From contig JBFOMH010000017.1 in the NCBI GenBank assembly GCA_040830765.1, positions 64,001 through 128,000 of the forward strand: a stretch of DNA of 64,000 bases. The letters run 5' to 3'. The translations under genes were made by a program, and so were the position numbers. The DNA comes from Puniceicoccaceae bacterium (GTDB lineage Bacteria; Verrucomicrobiota; Verrucomicrobiia; Opitutales; Oceanipulchritudinaceae). Below, piece after piece: positions 21,770-63,240 of the stretch. Positions within the stretch are counted from its first letter, which is position 1. Each line of letters opens with the position of its first letter. Below the pieces are notes generated by a model. The model saw nothing but the letters and a program-made list of their open reading frames with translations, ran no database searches and was not told where the DNA came from.

Positions 21770-22765
21770 ATGAATCCATTAAAAGTTGTCAGTATAGGCG
21801 GGTTCGGACATTCTGGACTTGTTTTCAATGACATGCTGGGTATGTCAGAGGCCAAGCTGGTTGGTCTTGCTCCTGCATTTGAAGGAGAGGACATCAGTTT
21901 CTTTGCAGGACATGAGCTTTGTCAGGAAGTACCGGTGTATGATGATTACCTGAACATGATCGATGAGGTTGATCCGGATGTAGCAGTGATCAGCACCCGG
22001 TTGGACATCATTCCGCTAATCATCATCGCTGCAGCCAATCGTGGTTGTCATATTATTGCTGAAAAGCCTTTGGCACTGGATTTTAAGATACTTGCAAAAG
22101 TGCGAGAAGCGGTTGAGGCCAATGGTACTAAACTGACAGCGATGCTTTCGATGAGAAGTGAGCCGCAGTTTATTGCTGCAAAAGAACTCTATGATTGTGG
22201 CCTGATAGGCGAAGCTGTTCTTGTGAATGGTCGAAAGTCCTACAAATGGGGATCGCGTTCGGAGTGGATGGGTGAAAAGGATAACTATGGAGGAACGATC
22301 GGCTGGGTTGGTATTCACGCGGTTGATTTTATCAACTTTGTTACGGGACTTGGTTTCAGCAAAGTCTCTGCCATGAAGGGTAATTTCTCACATCCCGAGC
22401 GTCCAGCATGTGATGACAATTGCGCGATGCTGCTAGAGCTCTCCAATGGTGCGCATGCAACAGTTAGTGTTGATCTTTATCGTCCGGGTTCTGCTACCAC
22501 CTGGGGCGATGACTGGATCCGGGTTGTGGGGACCAAGGGAGTCATAGAGGCTCGTGGATCGGATATGACCTGCACAGTTCTGGTGGATAGAGAGGAACCG
22601 GTTTTTGTCGAGCTGCCGCAGAAGTCGAAAATGTTCAGGGAATTCCTACTGGCAGTTGCAGGAGATGAATCACTTGAAATTCACCAGGAAGAGTCATTTA
22701 TGCTGACTCATGTCTGTTTGTGCGGTCGGGAATCAGCGGAACAAGAAACATTTGTAGAGATATGA
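21770..22765 (+). CDS. Gfo/Idh/MocA family oxidoreductase
   Basis: Rossmann N-terminus, AEKPLA, GGTIGWVGIHAVD. Confidence 0.88.
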   Translation: MNPLKVVSIGGFGHSGLVFNDMLGMSEAKLVGLAPAFEGEDISFFAGHELCQEVPVYDDYLNMIDEVDPDVAVISTRLDIIPLIIIAAANRGCHIIAEKPLALDFKILAKVREAVEANGTKLTAMLSMRSEPQFIAAKELYDCGLIGEAVLVNGRKSYKWGSRSEWMGEKDNYGGTIGWVGIHAVDFINFVTGLGFSKVSAMKGNFSHPERPACDDNCAMLLELSNGAHATVSVDLYRPGSATTWGDDWIRVVGTKGVIEARGSDMTCTVLVDREEPVFVELPQKSKMFREFLLAVAGDESLEIHQEESFMLTHVCLCGRESAEQETFVEI

Positions 22766-22781
22766 TCATTACGAATAGTTC

Positions 22782-23282
22782 ATGAAAATTTTGAAATATA
22801 CTAGATTTATAGCTTTATCCACAATCGCAATGGGATACATGGCTGCGGAACGACCGAATATTGTCTTATTAATCGCGGATGATGTATCGCCTGACTTCAG
22901 CTGTTACGATTTCCCAGTTCAGCCTCTGAATATTGACAGGTTGGCTGCCGGGGTAGTTCGGTTTAACAATGCATATGTCGCAGCCAGCTCAAGTAGCCCT
23001 AGCCGATGCAGCATCATAATCGGACGGTATGCACATAATATTGGCGCTCTTGACTTGCAAATGGCTTTGCCGAAAGGACAGTTCCTGTTTCCAAAGGCGC
23101 TCAAGGATTCAGGATACTATTGTGCCAAGTTTGGGAAGTTCCATATGGGTGATTATTCCAAGGAAGGATTCGATGTAGTTCAGGAGAATCCAACCTACGC
23201 GCCAAGGGCGTGCCAGTTGACGCCGGGCTTTTTGAGAATGAACGCAATGTACAGGCCTCGCGGGGACGCTTTTTTACCCTAA
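22782..23282 (+). pseudogene. Truncated sulfatase
   Basis: RPNIVLLIADD and GKFHMG are present, but the motif reads SSPSR rather than CxPxR. Similarity stops near 23195 and the ORF is only 166 aa. Confidence 0.8.
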
Positions 23283-23313
23283 TCACTCCTTAACACGACG
23301 TTATGCCGCGAAA

Positions 23314-23532
23314 ATGATCGAACACAATCGAAAATCTACCTCTGTGCTCCTTGAACGGTCCCTGATATACCAGAGGTATAAAGCCGAAAAGGAAGAGATT
23401 GACCGGCATAAGTGGATCGAGAGCGAAAAAGCTGGTTATGACATTGGTTTTGATCGGGCTATGTTTGAGTGGGTTCGTCATCATAGAAACGACTTTCTGA
23501 ACCATTACCGGGATTCACAATTTATGCCTTAG
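23314..23532 (+). CDS. Small DUF4032-like protein
   Basis: EEIDRHKWIESEKAGYDIGFDRAMFEWVRHH motif. Confidence 0.75.
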   Translation: MIEHNRKSTSVLLERSLIYQRYKAEKEEIDRHKWIESEKAGYDIGFDRAMFEWVRHHRNDFLNHYRDSQFMP

Positions 23533-23645
23533 ACCAAAATACCGGAGGCAAATCAAAGACTTCGCGGCGGCGTTTCCATACCCTCAAAAAAACTACTCAA
23601 TCTGCTAATTGTACTCGTATTCAACTGTTTGTCATTTAGAGAAGA

Positions 23646-24041
23646 ATGTCAGCTACTATCACCTTTAACTCATACTTCACTTTGAAGTATTCCCATATAG
23701 TCGAAATTCATGAAACCACATCGGTTCTTGATCAACTTGTAGGTTGTTCGACTTTCGACAATTGCATCTTTGGCATTATTGATTTCAGGGAAGTCCATCA
23801 GTTGGCCTATGAAAAGATGGATTTTCAAATGCATGGGGCGTTCATCAATACTTTGTGGAAGATGAAACGAAGAGATGACACCTTTAAACTCGCTTATGTT
23901 GTGAATGACGAGGAGGCTGTAGCTTGGGCTGAACGGATCCAATCATCTTGTCAGCTAGATAACTGTTTCAAAAGGCAAGCGATCTTCATGGATTTCGGTC
24001 AGGCAATTAACTGGGGGCAGGATGCTAAAGCCCAATGTTAA
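23646..24041 (+). CDS. Hypothetical protein (possibly SpoIIAA/STAS-like)
   Basis: 131-aa ORF with IIDFREV, KLAYVV and F..FGQAINW pattern. Confidence 0.5.
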   Translation: MSATITFNSYFTLKYSHIVEIHETTSVLDQLVGCSTFDNCIFGIIDFREVHQLAYEKMDFQMHGAFINTLWKMKRRDDTFKLAYVVNDEEAVAWAERIQSSCQLDNCFKRQAIFMDFGQAINWGQDAKAQC

Positions 24042-24160
24042 GTGTCCCCCAATACCACTCAATGCTATTCAACACGACTCCAGTGTATTGATTATGCCTA
24101 AACTAAAAATCTACGCTTTTTGCTAAGTGTTTGATTATAAGTACTTAAGCGATTTATGTA

Positions 24161-24181
24161 CAAGTCCCCCCCTCTCCGCCA
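24161..24181 (+). other. tRNA-Ser 3' fragment, putative attR
   Basis: CAAGT-CCCCC-CCTCTCC-G-CCA corresponds to part of the T-loop, T-stem, acceptor strand, G discriminator and CCA. No 5' tRNA half lies upstream, and it is preceded by an AT-rich TAAGT...ACTTA inverted repeat. Confidence 0.75.
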
Positions 24182-24260
24182 CTCGACAAGCTCGTGGCAG
24201 GCCAAGCCAGAGCTTGGACTGGCTCGAGTGCAGGCGAGTGCCCTGAGCTTGTCGAAGGGC
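24178..24260. repeat. Inverted pair of REP-like mini-hairpins with TCGACAAGCTC loop
   Basis: GCCAC-TCGACAAGCTC-GTGGC (24178-24198) and the reverse complement of GCCCT-TCGACAAGCTC-AGGGC (24240-24260). Confidence 0.8.
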
Positions 24261-24337
24261 TAGACTAGCCGTCAACAGACGAAATTGACTAATTTTCGAC
24301 CTCTTAAAGTAGTTTGGGTCCCCCACATCCTTCCCGG

Positions 24338-24646
24338 ATGCCATCGTTAACCCACCACGTCTACCTGCTCCGCTGCGCCAATGGCACGATCTATGTTGGC
24401 CAGACGCATGACATCGAGAGCCGAATGGAGCGTCACCGAAGTGGGACTGGTGCCCGCCATACGGCACAAAACAAACAATTTGAGGTCATTTACACGGAAG
24501 GACCAATGTCGTTTAAGGAGGCCGTTGCCCGTGAGCGGCAGCTCAAGAAATGGAGTCGAGCCAAGAAGCAGGCGCTGGCTAATGGAGACTTGGACCAACT
24601 GCGGAAATTGAGTCGAGGTACCGGCCGGCGATCCGCAAGCTGTTGA
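24338..24646 (+). CDS. Stand-alone GIY-YIG nuclease (UPF0213-like)
   Basis: HVYLLRC..TIYVGQT..RMERH..G.GARHT..AVARERQLKKWSRAKK. Confidence 0.9.
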   Translation: MPSLTHHVYLLRCANGTIYVGQTHDIESRMERHRSGTGARHTAQNKQFEVIYTEGPMSFKEAVARERQLKKWSRAKKQALANGDLDQLRKLSRGTGRRSASC

Positions 24647-24650
24647 AAAT

Positions 24651-24719
24651 CATGCGGAAATCGTCAGAACTGGACGGCTGGGGGACATGCTTAACTTCTA
24701 TCGAAGGAAGGCCGCCTGA
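24651..24719 (+). pseudogene. C-terminal remnant of an integrase-core-domain transposase
   Basis: Frame HAEIVRTGRLGDMLNFYRRKAA* resembles the RLGGxLxxYxRxAA* terminus of rve-type transposases. Confidence 0.6.
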
Positions 24720-24765
24720 TGAGTTGGGGCATAAGAAGTCTATAAGAGAAGAATATCAACGTGTG

Positions 24766-24821
24766 GTCCCTTAGCAGACCGGTCGGTTGAGAGACATCTG
24801 GAGTTTTCCATTTCCCACAAA
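24766..24821. repeat. Dispersed repeat copy 2 (probable IS right end)
   Basis: Same orientation as 8374-8430, with 4 substitutions and 1 deletion; lies just downstream of the transposase remnant. Confidence 0.85.
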
Positions 24822-24824
24822 GGA

Positions 24825-26378
24825 TTACCCTTCTAGCGGATCATTACCAAGAGAAGCGGAATCTCCCTTCAATGGGGCAACGGTAATGAGCACTCGGCGG
24901 TAGTCTACCAAAGGTATATCTGGATGCTGATCCCAAACTTCCAGGATGATGTGCAGTTCCTTCCCGGCAGCGTCCTCAGGTACAACGAATTTGAGTGTCT
25001 CTTTGTCAGCGTACTGCAAGTCGAGTGATTTGCCGTAGGGCACACGTCCTGCCTCGGGATAGTTCCACCATCGATAGCTCAGGGTGTCCCCGTCCGGGTC
25101 GCTTGAGCCCGCCGCGGATAGCGTTAACGTTTGACCGGGAGTTGCAGTAAGGAAGAGAATCCGGTCGGAGTGGTCATTTTCGAGGACGGCTTTTGGATGA
25201 TGGTTTGCCTTCTCAAAGGGCTCAACGCACCAATCCATACGGGCTTTGAGATCGTTCCACATGGCCCGCCTCCAACGCCAGACCGGCGCGTATTGACCGC
25301 TGAAATCCTTGCCGGACTCTGGATCGATCCAATGGTCCGTGATGTGGGGCCCATCGGTGTAGGCCGCGAAGGGAGGCATTTTGAGTTCGTCATCCCGAAC
25401 GAGGGAAAAGTGAGAGTAAACCTCAGGATGTTTTTCGGCAGAGTATCTCCCACTCCAGCCTCCCCAAGATGGTTCGGATCGATTGGTCAATCCTGGAATG
25501 TAAAAGTCGGCCAGGGGGATGGTTCCGCCACCTTCGATGAAGTGGAGGCGGTTGGCGGCTGCTCGATTGGGATAGAGTTCACCAAGCGGACCGTGCCCCG
25601 ATTGCACGTGCACCTTGGCCCATTCATGTTGTCCGTCAACGCTGTATTCAAATGGTTCCCACACGCTGGGACCAATCATCGTGTTGGAGGGGCCACCATA
25701 GGCCCGGGATTGTTCGACGCTGCGCACATAGTGGAGGTCGGGAAACTGGTTGCAAATCCAAGCCCCTGCGTCGTCTTGACCTCCGTTGTCGTATACCCGC
25801 AATTTGGATACAAAGGCGGCTAGTTCTTCATTCGTGCTCCGGGCGCGGTAGTCGATCAAGGCTTGGGCCAAGGTATTGGATCCAGCGTTGATCACTATGT
25901 TGAGTGGCCGCTCGTCTGCCTTGGTGGCGGCGGCAATAATCAGATCGGATCCTGGTGTGGACTTTCCAGGGCCGGTATCGGCGATGCCATCTGAGACTTG
26001 CCCGGTTGAAACGATACTTCGCAAGTAATCTGGCTCGTGCCATCCGTCGGCGTGGCACTTGAGATTTGGGTATACTTTTTCGTAGGCGTCGATGAGGGCG
26101 TGAAATAATTGCGGCCGCAAGTCTTTGGAGCCCGGAGGAGGATTTGGGCGGAAGAAGCGGCCGGTGACGGTGATCAAGCCTTCCAGCTCAAATTGGTTGG
26201 AACACATGAGCATGTGGGTGATTTGCTGTTCCTCGTCGGGATCGTGTCCCATGTCCGCCAATACAATTACACGATCCTTGGTGGACGGAGTCTCTTGATT
26301 TGTGGGCATTTGGGCTTGGGAAGTAGAGGTTGCTATGAGAATGCAGTAGAAGAGGAAGGTGAGTTTTAAAGCGCGCAT
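24825..26378 (-). CDS. Secreted DUF1593 / nucleoside-hydrolase-like protein with C-terminal PKD/REJ-like domain
   Basis: RVIVLADMGHDPDEEQ, GQDDAGAWI, WGGWSGRY, ARMDWC, ANHHP, SSDPDGDTLSYRWW. Confidence 0.85.
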   Translation of the reverse strand: MRALKLTFLFYCILIATSTSQAQMPTNQETPSTKDRVIVLADMGHDPDEEQQITHMLMCSNQFELEGLITVTGRFFRPNPPPGSKDLRPQLFHALIDAYEKVYPNLKCHADGWHEPDYLRSIVSTGQVSDGIADTGPGKSTPGSDLIIAAATKADERPLNIVINAGSNTLAQALIDYRARSTNEELAAFVSKLRVYDNGGQDDAGAWICNQFPDLHYVRSVEQSRAYGGPSNTMIGPSVWEPFEYSVDGQHEWAKVHVQSGHGPLGELYPNRAAANRLHFIEGGGTIPLADFYIPGLTNRSEPSWGGWSGRYSAEKHPEVYSHFSLVRDDELKMPPFAAYTDGPHITDHWIDPESGKDFSGQYAPVWRWRRAMWNDLKARMDWCVEPFEKANHHPKAVLENDHSDRILFLTATPGQTLTLSAAGSSDPDGDTLSYRWWNYPEAGRVPYGKSLDLQYADKETLKFVVPEDAAGKELHIILEVWDQHPDIPLVDYRRVLITVAPLKGDSASLGNDPLEG

Positions 26379-26415
26379 TTAACTGAAGGTTGGTATCGAG
26401 GGAAAAAGAGGTGTT

Positions 26416-28584
26416 CTAGGGCGGCGTGATTGTGGATTTTGGCACGGGAGGAGCGCTGCGGGAGACTTGGCGGACGTAGTCGATTTCCTTGTCAACGTAT
26501 TCAGTGGTCGCTTGCCAGTCGAGTACCTGACCCCGGGCCAGCACTTGCGGGCGGTACTGACTGCTGGCGAGGCGAGCATAGACCCGCCAATCCCGGGCTG
26601 CGTTTTCCAGGTCGCCTATTGCGGCTGCCTGACGTTGGGGATTGCCGGTTTTGCGGAACCAGGCGAGGTGTGTGGCACCACGGATCTTGTCCGCATAGTA
26701 GCGACCCATCCAAGACATTGCTTCGATATCGGTAAGTACGCTCGACAGTTCAGAAGAGATATCCATGGATTGCCGTCTCAAGCGTTCGACACCGTCGAGG
26801 GCTTGATCAGCGAATGCATCCAGGTTTTGGGCTACTTCAAGGGGGTTGCGCGAGTTTTCTGCTCCGGGATGATCGGCTTGGGCGAGGAATTCTGGGATGC
26901 TGATTTCCGGGGCTCCACTCATCGGTTCCCCATTTATGAAGTCTTCAACGGTGAGGAAGGGTTCCTTGGCAAAGTGACAGCCTTCGGGCGAGAACATCCA
27001 ATCACCGCGCTTGAAGAAGAAGCGATTGATTTGCGGCATTATTTTCGAGCTATGAGTCCAGGTATCGTAGAGCAAGGAGGGGTCTGCTTCGGGAAAGCGG
27101 TCGTGGAGTGCAGCTTCGAAAAAGCGACGATCAAGGGAGGGGTCATATCCAAGCCTTCCCCAAATCATGAAATTGTACCAGTGGCGGTCGATTTCCATTT
27201 GTCCGCGTTGGGCTTCGTCCAGGAGGGCGAAGTTGCGAGCCCATACGTAGCCATCCGATCCCATGTGAAATCCAATGGTTTGCTCCGGTGGCATGTTCTT
27301 TATCATCGAGCGGGCGTAGGAAGGATCACCCCAGCGAAGGCAATAAAGGTCGTCGTTGCGCAGATTCCACCAAGCTTTAATGCGGTTCTGTCGCATGTCC
27401 TCAATCAGAGGATCAGCAAAGATCGGGTTGGGCATGGAGTGGATACGCGCTTTGGCATATTTGAAGCTTGTGTCAAAGGGACCCGGGTAGTCCGTAAAAG
27501 CGTCGAGAACAGGCTTGAGCCCGGTTTGCCAATCTCGATGGATGAATCGGACCTGCCGGTCCGGTTGCAGTTTGACAACATCCTGGACGGGCACCCCGTA
27601 GGCATCCCAAAGCCATGCTTCCTTGGCTTCGTTGTTGGGAAACTGTTTCATCTTCTCGCCGGCTGTGACGCCGATGCCAGCCAAGTCTGGATAGGCAAGC
27701 AAGGTTTCGCGAACACTGGAGCGGAGGTAATCGATGGTTATCGCGTTGTCGGGCGATGCGTCGATGCCGTATTTGCCATAAGCTCCATCCAGATGAACGT
27801 TCCAGGTGATAATGAAAAACTGGATACCGCGATCCTTGGCGTAGGCCATGACTTTACGCCAAAAGGCGATTTTTTCCTCAATGGTGATTTCCTTGAGGAT
27901 GACGAGATTATCCAGCACCTCTTGAGCGACATAGCGAGGGTGATAGTCCAAGGGGTAACGGTAGGTTGTGCCGCAGACATCGTTGAGGGCGACCTTTGGA
28001 TAGTCCTCCAGTTTAACCAATGAGGGAAAGGGATGCGGGTTCCACAAGGTAATGGCGTTGTACCGGAAGCGAGCCATCGCGTCCAATTGTGCTGTCCAGA
28101 AATCGAAGTCCCACATGGTTTCGATATTCCACTTGGCGGAATCGCCGGTATCATCGTAGCTTGGCGTACGGGCATCTAGCGGGAAATTAATTTTAAGAGC
28201 CCGGAATTCGAGATAGGGTGACGCAGATTGGGATCGAATCCGGTCAATGTTCTGTTTGAATTGAATCGATTCGGCAAGGGCCAAGCCACCATACATCAAG
28301 CCTGCCGGGTCGCCTCCATAGAGGGTGAAGTGTCCAGCTCCGTTCGCCTCGATACGATAGGCTTCGGCTTGGAGTCCACTATCCTCGACAAAGCGCACAT
28401 TGAGCGATGTGTAATCGGATTCGACGGAGGTGGCGGCTTGCTTCAACTCGCCCAGGGCAAAGTTCACTTGCGGAGAGAGACAATCGCCGGAAGCATTAAT
28501 TTCAGTGGCCTTGGCTGGAGTTATGGTGAGAGACGCGACGAGCGCAGCGAAGCTCACGGAAAATTTCCCGATCGTAGTAGGCAT
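26416..28584 (-). CDS. Secreted putative glycoside hydrolase (GH20/GH67/GH115-type N-terminal domain)
   Basis: Signal peptide, EAYRI..GGDPAGLMYGGL, LDAMARFRYN, GVTAGE, RWGDP. Confidence 0.65.
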   Translation of the reverse strand: MPTTIGKFSVSFAALVASLTITPAKATEINASGDCLSPQVNFALGELKQAATSVESDYTSLNVRFVEDSGLQAEAYRIEANGAGHFTLYGGDPAGLMYGGLALAESIQFKQNIDRIRSQSASPYLEFRALKINFPLDARTPSYDDTGDSAKWNIETMWDFDFWTAQLDAMARFRYNAITLWNPHPFPSLVKLEDYPKVALNDVCGTTYRYPLDYHPRYVAQEVLDNLVILKEITIEEKIAFWRKVMAYAKDRGIQFFIITWNVHLDGAYGKYGIDASPDNAITIDYLRSSVRETLLAYPDLAGIGVTAGEKMKQFPNNEAKEAWLWDAYGVPVQDVVKLQPDRQVRFIHRDWQTGLKPVLDAFTDYPGPFDTSFKYAKARIHSMPNPIFADPLIEDMRQNRIKAWWNLRNDDLYCLRWGDPSYARSMIKNMPPEQTIGFHMGSDGYVWARNFALLDEAQRGQMEIDRHWYNFMIWGRLGYDPSLDRRFFEAALHDRFPEADPSLLYDTWTHSSKIMPQINRFFFKRGDWMFSPEGCHFAKEPFLTVEDFINGEPMSGAPEISIPEFLAQADHPGAENSRNPLEVAQNLDAFADQALDGVERLRRQSMDISSELSSVLTDIEAMSWMGRYYADKIRGATHLAWFRKTGNPQRQAAAIGDLENAARDWRVYARLASSQYRPQVLARGQVLDWQATTEYVDKEIDYVRQVSRSAPPVPKSTITPP

Positions 28585-28813: not shown

Positions 28814-28837
28814 GTTCGAATCCCTCCTTCTCCACTA
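28814..28837 (+). other. Degenerate tRNA-Ser-like 3' fragment (older att site)
   Basis: GTTCGAATCCCTCCTTCTCCACTA aligns without gaps to 24158-24181 and retains a canonical GTTCGAAT T-loop. Confidence 0.55.
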
Positions 28838-28947
28838 TTAGACTAGCGCGTGGCACCCCAAGGCGCCCGTTTCTCCTAATAACTCGACACTAGGGCGTGG
28901 GTTGGCCATGATTCAGTTCGCAAGCAGCTGAAACCATTCGTTATACA

Positions 28948-63144: not shown

Positions 63145-63240
63145 GGAGTACAGGCGTCCCGCCTGTACGTGCCTGCCTACAGGCGGGACGCCTGTAGTCC
63201 TTTTGGCGGTTCCAACTACAGGCGGGACGCCTGTAGTCCT
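63145..63240. repeat. Three REP-like palindromes
   Basis: CTACAGGCGGGACGCCTGTAGTCC at 63177 and 63216, plus an inverted variant at 63145, between convergent genes. Confidence 0.85.

Follow-up and report, generated by a model that had tools for sequence, protein, structure and literature searches.

A hairpin leader and a small GIY-YIG nuclease gene lodged together at tRNA and tmRNA gene ends

We describe a cassette of about 470 bp in which two short hairpins, the first of them built onto the CCA end of a tRNA sequence, precede a gene for a single-domain GIY-YIG nuclease. The cassette is real and is undescribed in the literature that we searched, mainly open-access papers, in which no description of a tRNA-end hairpin/GIY-YIG cassette was found; it is a variant of the design that joins hairpins to a small nuclease. 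Given that the unit is found at tRNA gene ends in several phyla, it is likely to be a very small selfish DNA without an integrase, and we incline, with some reserve, to the view that the two-hairpin leader starting from CCA and the GIY-YIG gene together constitute a minimal selfish element able to move from one tRNA or tmRNA end to another. The DNA analysed, referred to as the window, is a 64-kb stretch corresponding to positions 64001–128000 of contig C17 of the source genome (G000), and coordinates without a contig or locus name are those of the window.

The cassette begins at a displaced 3' fragment of a tRNA-Ser(GGA) gene, 20 nt long and ending in CCA (24162–24181, plus strand), which provides the left arm of the first hairpin, as the initial annotation had recognized. 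Unit 1 (24178–24198, minus strand) reads GCCAC, 11 nt, GTGGC, and its conserved stem, CCAY/RTGG, pairs positions 24179–24182 with 24194–24197. The right arm of unit 1 has an alternative pairing partner in a mini-hairpin, TGGC-AG-GCCA (24195–24204). A spacer whose length and sequence vary among relatives (24205–24234) leads to a half-copy, CGAGTG (24235–24240, plus strand), that is complementary to 24180–24185 in a long-range pairing. Unit 2 (24240–24260, plus strand) is inverted relative to unit 1 and has its own 5-bp stem; two inverted 21-nt units with the same 11-nt inner sequence and different 5-bp stems are present as originally described. The nuclease gene (24338–24646, plus strand) encodes 102 amino acids, its ATG lies 77 nt past unit 2, and the open reading frames listed for the locus include no integrase or transposase adjoining the hairpins and the gene, all of which agrees with the first description.

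The arrangement was compared with chance by counting cases of the same 11-mer inverted within 200 nt, each copy being closed by its own 5-bp stem. This configuration was absent from 30 Markov controls and was found three times in the window, once as the tRNA-end cassette and twice in an unrelated repeat at 63148–63236, a cluster of inverted palindromic repeats that has no relation to the cassette. ARAGORN called no intact tRNA in the window, and PADLOC gave no match. When a 3-kb stretch was divided into 30 bins, contigs of one RNA run covered 26 of them and matched the sequence letter for letter across the cassette, which supports the assembly of the cassette but cannot show transcription.

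The encoded protein is UPF0213/YhbQ-like, and PF01541 was its only Pfam match (E = 5e-18). Motif residues Y9, Y19, G21, R29, H33, and E66 are present in an alignment of 28 of 64 homologues. The sole solved relatives, PDB 1ZG2 (E = 3e-13) and 1YWL (E = 8e-10), are UPF0213 proteins of the same size, and the structure model from the Atlas matched only GIY-YIG proteins. Comparison with four close relatives yielded pN values of 0.13–0.20 versus pS values of 0.75–0.87, a pattern of substitution from which the nuclease is judged to be under purifying selection. The last codons of the gene (24621–24646) are apparently derived from adjoining island DNA; contigs of other organisms start to match at 24621–24630, and three homologues share the same terminal residues. 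Many relatives have unit 2 embedded in frame in the 5' portion of the nuclease ORF, and no ATG separates the hairpin from the GIY motif (L004, L005, L006, L007, L009, L010, L039, L145, L146, L147, and L155).

The origin of the tRNA fragment, which the initial annotation had missed, was apparent from the contig as a whole. An intact tRNA-Ser(GGA) gene is present at C17:12566–12656, and directly behind it lies a prophage or island of approximately 75 kb and lower GC content (C17:12657–88181), which contains two integrases, a terminase, a portal protein, and a major head protein and which ends at the fragment. The right end of this prophage (24047–24161, plus strand) is flanking context outside the cassette and, counted together with the fragment and the leader, is 82% identical to the corresponding region of a related genome (G005, locus L003), which shares the prophage end, the tRNA fragment, the leader, and the nuclease with the window. 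The fragment differs from the intact gene at one position in 17 nt and matches exactly the tRNA gene end in seven of seven genus relatives with the same upstream gene. On these sequence grounds the fragment is the attR of a prophage integrated in tRNA-Ser(GGA), in line with the principle, set out in the part of PMC4383910 consulted, that integration at tRNA genes leaves displaced fragments. The hairpins and the nuclease gene therefore most likely stood behind the intact tRNA gene before the prophage arrived, and the prophage would later have pushed the cassette, together with the tRNA fragment, 75 kb away. The prophage integrases are about 70 kb from the cassette, which has none of its own. 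The same arrangement in G005 and the saturated synonymous sites make the window copy look old.

The DNA following the nuclease gene is marked as foreign by a 57-nt island-borne repeat (24766–24821), which is not a cassette end; two more copies are located within the prophage (C17:37551 and 72374) and one past an integrase fragment in another locus (L022, 1632–1724). Further downstream, another tRNA-Ser 3' remnant and the unit 1 behind it (28815–28862, plus strand), both decayed, probably mark where an older 4-kb island ends, and this second pair suggests stacked insertions, each with a leader behind it. The putative island carries two glycoside-related genes.

The relation between the nuclease and tRNA ends was examined in homologous loci consisting of the best 80 of at least 424 genome loci, 79 from the best 80 of at least 430 metagenome stretches, and 30 from relatives, with 153 loci remaining after removal of identical genes and of loci with less than 350 nt upstream. 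A locus was counted as linked if a tRNA or tmRNA gene (ARAGORN, relaxed threshold) or unit 1 was present within 700 nt upstream on the same strand. Among these 153 loci from the best-matching sets, linkage was found in all 25 with at least 50% identity, the window included, in 22 of 31 at 45–50%, in 19 of 64 at 40–45%, and in 4 of 33 below 40%; enrichment of the hairpins near GIY-YIG genes and tRNA ends, as the initial annotation had envisaged, is thus borne out. The hosts of the best-matching loci include members of Verrucomicrobiota, Kiritimatiellota, Planctomycetota, Acidobacteriota, and candidate phyla. Relatives are Opitutales, the top named one among the matches listed being an Oceanipulchritudo genome.

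In a tree built on 89 columns only, and from related genomes that are not independent samples, the window protein falls in a clade of 24 rows (SH-aLRT 94), every one of which is linked to a tRNA end, the sites being Ser(GCT/GGA/CGA/TGA) and Asp genes or their remnants. Eight leaderless paralogues from the same bacterial family form a separate clade with a support of 100, and the leaderless paralogue of the source genome (C13:116527–116784) clusters with those of relatives. With little support in its deeper forks, the tree is compatible with one origin of tRNA lodging as well as with several. In distant homologues from Alphaproteobacteria and Bacteroidota, inspection by eye revealed similar G·A hairpins flanking the gene on both sides and no tRNA; the G·A hairpin pattern used with the tree misses the Bradyrhizobium form. 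The idea that coincidence alone brought together an unremarkable attR, a palindrome arisen by chance, and a YhbQ-type nuclease with a housekeeping role in repair is scarcely credible: the attR part is indeed ordinary and the solved relatives of the protein are UPF0213 proteins, but the linkage counts and the covariation described below refute coincidence, and the genome possesses the separate leaderless paralogue.

Close homologues are distributed patchily: of 151 genomes from the order, 21 have one at an E threshold of 1e-12. The unit 1 pattern occurs in 17 of the 21 genomes with the protein and in 31 of the 130 without it (reversed control, 10 of 151; cross-read by eye), and the link between leader and nuclease is not one-to-one per genome. 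Nine of the first 30 pattern matches were at a called tRNA end, seven had a GIY-YIG gene within 700 nt, and several others looked like chance matches. At two loci (L059 and L099) the leader follows a tRNA-like sequence that ends in CCA, was not called by ARAGORN, and seems to be an unusual tRNA whose anticodon is GTT. Leaderless GIY-YIG genes are also found approximately 20–70 nt behind tRNA-Asn(GTT) or tRNA-Met (L020, L029, L264, L266, L275, and L278).

For analysis of covariation, we collected 41 distinct leaders anchored at called tRNA or tmRNA ends, with the stem positions left free, and unit 2 was parsed in 29 of them. In counts that are inflated by kinship, the first pair of unit 1 after CCA was T-A in 32 leaders, C-G in 8, and A-A in 1, so that pairing was retained in 40 of 41, with the C-G variants still seen in Planctomycetota, Acidobacteriota, Peribacteria, and Opitutales. 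The innermost stem pair of unit 2 was T-A in 24, C-G in 4, and T-G in 1 of the 29 parsed leaders and varied independently of unit 1. The compensatory change that the initial annotation read from the two stems of the window was in this way confirmed. The base after CCA also covaries with the half-copy before unit 2 (23 T-A, 5 C-G, and 1 T-G), 28 of 29 pairs being Watson-Crick, and in 37 of 40 parsed leaders (34 C-G and 3 T-A) the nucleotide that follows TGG is complementary to the one preceding the downstream CC.

The conserved stem of unit 1 comprises 4 bp (CCAY/RTGG), and a fifth pair requires that the tRNA have a G before CCA. Only 3 of 16 leaders with another base at that position keep the fifth pair, and beyond CCA the stems show no dependence on the host tRNA; the proposal that the stems follow the host tRNA end did not hold. 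Nor did the 11-nt loop prove to be a conserved signal. As a marker the exact 11-mer was rejected, 9 of its 15 copies in the genome being scattered outside these elements. The inserts of the two units are identical in none of the 29 parsed relatives, with inner parts that measure between 3 and about 36 nt, so that the sharing of one 11-nt sequence by both units is a local feature. Behind a tRNA-Arg(CCG) gene (C38:1331–1422), unit 1 occurs four times with a period of 22 nt, the copies ending in CC or CCA, in what looks like slippage.

The 11-nt sequence probably reads best not as a loop but as a continuation of the stem with G·A mismatches, in the order stem, G·A, A·G, and G-C on one strand. Tandem G·A pairs are stable in DNA. 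The putative tandem G·A/A·G pairs with the following G-C lie on the minus strand in unit 1 (24178–24198) and the corresponding fold on the plus strand in unit 2. Across the leaders, C-GNA-G loops occur on the antisense strand in 27 cases versus the sense strand in 4 for unit 1, and on the sense strand in 8 cases versus the antisense strand in none for unit 2. Loops of the type d(GNA) closed by C:G are described as very stable in DNA in the part of PMC3201870 consulted. DNA-type GNA loops on opposite strands in the two units fit single-stranded DNA rather than a transcript, and units 1 and 2 thus appear to fold on opposite strands, probably as single-stranded DNA. Energy models favor one long stem joining both 11-mers over two mini-hairpins (z = –3.19 with DNA and –2.46 with RNA parameters), and each 21-mer alone is no more stable than its shuffled versions (z = –1.6 and –1.0); we assume that the standard models undervalue G·A mismatches.

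These strand preferences bear on the possibility that the leader is an RNA element, a trailer hairpin that masks the CCA of the pre-tRNA and adjusts either its 3' processing or the extent to which transcription reads on into the nuclease gene, an alternative that the initial annotation had also raised. The leader begins exactly at CCA, co-transcription is expected with an intact tRNA gene, the RNA fold has the z score given above, and the long-range pair covaries. The transcribed strand of unit 1, however, has pyrimidine mismatches, and the stable loops are on the antisense strand. Orthologous tRNA genes carry leader A, leader B, or none, and the leader of the window persists behind a fragment that makes no tRNA. 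Rfam returned nothing at E values up to 5 across positions 22000–27000, and a terminator scan found none; the single promoter-like site was on the minus strand and no more than chance would give. We consider a role in tRNA 3' processing very unlikely.

Leaders without a gene are also present in the source genome, where type A, the type of the window, lies behind 7 of 47 tRNA or tmRNA calls and a second form, type B, behind 14 of 47. All strict genome-wide matches, 4 of 4 for type A and 14 of 14 for type B, were at tRNA ends or at the 24162–24181 remnant, and a generic signature was found at 20 of 45 tRNA ends versus 186 of 17,277 random CCA sites. A loose any-stem hairpin pattern, with 20 genome matches versus 8 per 2 Mb in controls, was replaced by CCA-anchored patterns. 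A second and a third GIY-YIG gene, both of a type designated P0065, lie approximately 270 nt behind tRNA-Leu(TAA) and tRNA-Pro(TGG) with type B leaders (C33:25435–25734, L252, and C27:88436–88696, L269). Among 56 loci close to the window nuclease, leader A was found at 40 and leader B at none, whereas among 28 loci of P0065, leader B was found at 7 and leader A at none. Leader types and nuclease types are cognate pairs.

Comparison of filled and empty sites, as the initial annotation had suggested, revealed turnover. Leader A was present at 1 of 9 Val(TAC), 1 of 13 Leu(TAG), and 3 of 9 Ser(TGA) genus loci fetched, the remaining orthologous genes having leader B or nothing. A whole cassette is found at Ser(GCT) in G012 and in L143, the source genome has at that gene a leader cut before unit 2, and the orthologous Ser(GGA) gene of G009 carries leader B. 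Two cassettes of one genome, at Ser(GGA) and Ser(CGA) (L039 and L040), are 93% identical from the tRNA end onward, with the identity stopping approximately 25 nt after the matched gene, and the genes of L146 and L147, at Ser(GGA) and Ser(GCT), are 95% identical. Near-identical cassettes at different serine tRNAs indicate movement in these relatives.

The left end of the cassette is sharp and the right end mostly ragged, with the window copy having no defined right end. Of 56 loci, 7 had a copy of the tRNA end downstream, compared with 1 of 48 in the control; four loci had less than 300 nt of downstream sequence, and some of these seven copies may belong to a third short element. In the window no such copy is present within 500 nt downstream, the decayed remnant lying 4.2 kb downstream. 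A universal right end was rejected: the motif seen after some genes is present in 5 of 56 loci and not in the window. A third class of gene-less inserts at tRNA ends, approximately 80–150 nt in length and each closed by a T-loop-to-CCA duplicate, is often stacked before or behind a nuclease cassette (L007, L010, L036, L040, L104, L128, L129, L138, L141, and L147). In G012, both nuclease genes abut 5'-truncated pieces of the prophage integrase family (L002:813–1427 and L022:787–1364) that are 79–88% identical to C17:17262–18446 and have different junctions, at residues 124 and 189; the nuclease gene of L022 is without its first 19 codons.

Those junctions are pertinent to two further explanations. 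The cassette might be a passenger, placed at tRNA ends by integrases acting in trans or by prophages that bear it next to their attachment site, with its hairpins being ordinary REP-like partners. Integrase fragments abut the two G012 cassettes, the duplications, where present, run from the T-loop to CCA as in integrase-made islands (the principle being that of PMC4383910, as far as consulted), and distant homologues with the same G·A hairpin fold lie away from tRNAs. Against this origin, gene-less leaders occur at many tRNA types with unrelated acceptor stems, where CCA is required as a hairpin arm, and viral contigs provided no sign of carriage: the Ser-anchored leader had no match in them, and the six matches to the general leader were all away from tRNA ends and GIY-YIG genes. 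A passenger status is, in our estimation, distinctly unlikely. Alternatively, the nuclease might be a domesticated guard that cuts incoming single-stranded DNA bearing the hairpins, or the intermediates of islands, and thereby limits recombination at tRNA hotspots. The nuclease SsnA, according to the part of PMC11893778 consulted, lowers integration of DNA bearing NTS repeats and limits Neisseria transformation, the window nuclease shows the signature of purifying selection at an old site, and both G012 cassettes run into truncated integrases. A prophage nonetheless did integrate in front of the window cassette, several other cassettes, such as those of L003 and L038, also lie behind displaced tRNA fragments, and the close homologues are patchy. 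We regard a guard function as unlikely.

For the favored reading, a selfish element at tRNA ends, we propose a route that is modeled by analogy on SsnA. The nuclease would recognize its own hairpins in single-stranded DNA and nick nearby, as SsnA does at NTS repeats. Recombination or repair by the host would next place a copy of the whole cassette, or of just the leader, at the end of a different tRNA gene, anchored by the tRNA 3' end. Such anchored copying would give a sharp left end, a mostly ragged right end, and many leaders without a gene. To our knowledge, a GIY-YIG nuclease cannot join DNA, and we infer that the insertion step would be borrowed from the host. Cuts made 5' of both hairpins in the manner of SsnA would fall in the spacer and alone would not explain the targeting of tRNA. 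A more specific version, possible but doubtful, is that the nuclease reads both its own G·A hairpin and the single-stranded 3' end of the tRNA gene and brings about insertion directly behind CCA, with rival families competing for ends, recolonizing them after prophages, and able to overwrite the left end and the integrase of a prophage. If true, this would be the smallest known tRNA-targeting mobile element, and its relatives would be a large source of sequence-specific single-strand DNA cutters. Since each nuclease comes with a predicted substrate, one oligonucleotide cleavage assay would test the central claim, and the pairs of nuclease and substrate could yield new single-strand-specific cutters. 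For a large set of UPF0213-like proteins, the work also offers a role that can be tested.

Several known systems resemble the cassette in part; judged by sequence, it belongs with neither REPtrons nor integrative islands nor homing endonucleases. Integrative islands and prophages (Islander, in the part of PMC4383910 consulted) likewise use tRNA and tmRNA 3' ends and leave displaced fragments, and such integration explains the 24162–24181 fragment and the duplications in 7 of 56 cassettes. The window cassette differs in its size, its lack of an integrase, and the mostly absent duplicated right end. Free-standing GIY-YIG homing endonucleases share the catalytic domain and live as selfish elements, whereas the window protein has no separate DNA-binding domain and no intron and comes with a cognate hairpin leader; its score against TIGR01453 (NCBIfam) was 22 bits versus a cut-off of 56, and matches to PHROG were weak (E = 1e-4). 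Stand-alone GIY-YIG proteins of the UPF0213/YhbQ/YazA group (PMC7017083, in part) include the closest solved relatives, which are of the same size, but the genus has a separate leaderless clade and the window protein belongs to the clade linked to tRNA ends.

The initial annotation had likened the locus to REP/RAYT systems, or REPtrons. The REP-like pair, the linkage to tRNA and tmRNA ends, and the movement stand, and the two systems share short palindromes in inverted pairs with unequal partners that are also present without a gene; the closer analogy is Ssn/SRM. The partner here is a GIY-YIG protein, not an HUH/Y1 tyrosine transposase, no GTAG is present beside either unit, and there are 4 strict copies instead of tens to thousands of dispersed ones. 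Di Nocera et al. (2013; PMC3733652), in the part consulted, describe CGTC-tagged REP families without a dedicated transposase and make no mention of GIY; the window nuclease suggests a candidate type of partner enzyme for REP-like repeats that have no transposase.

Chenal et al. (2025; PMC11893778) report, in the part consulted, that SsnA binds one strand of NTS hairpins, only when the DNA is single-stranded, with cleavage a few bases upstream, and they liken NTS-ssnA-NTS to insertion sequences and to REP/transposase pairs. Ssn systems (SsnA, CDD cd10448; NTS/SRM repeats), as described there, consist of a single-domain GIY-YIG protein of about 100 amino acids beside short oriented hairpins, which are found as well in places where the gene is absent, and the window protein, at 102 amino acids, is within their definition of a single domain of less than 150 amino acids. 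The window hairpins differ in their putative G·A-mismatch fold, both of them lie upstream of the gene, and copies of the window family are confined to tRNA and tmRNA ends, whereas the main text of PMC11893778, as far as consulted, never mentions tRNA. The SRM/NTS motif (published pattern, gaps slightly loosened) was found at none of the positions within 500 nt of the window gene and at 1 of 56 close loci. Three NTS-flanked GIY-YIG proteins, obtained from 80 of 133 NTS-bearing viral loci and serving as a proxy because SsnA itself is absent from the tree, are 37–40% identical and form their own branch (SH-aLRT 99), which excludes the window protein. From its sequence relationships, the window cassette is thus probably not a member of Ssn, and by analogy it is likely to work as Ssn/SRM does. 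It extends the Ssn/SRM style of design to a different branch of GIY-YIG proteins and a different hairpin fold, and couples it with strict residence at tRNA and tmRNA ends, where phages and islands mainly enter.
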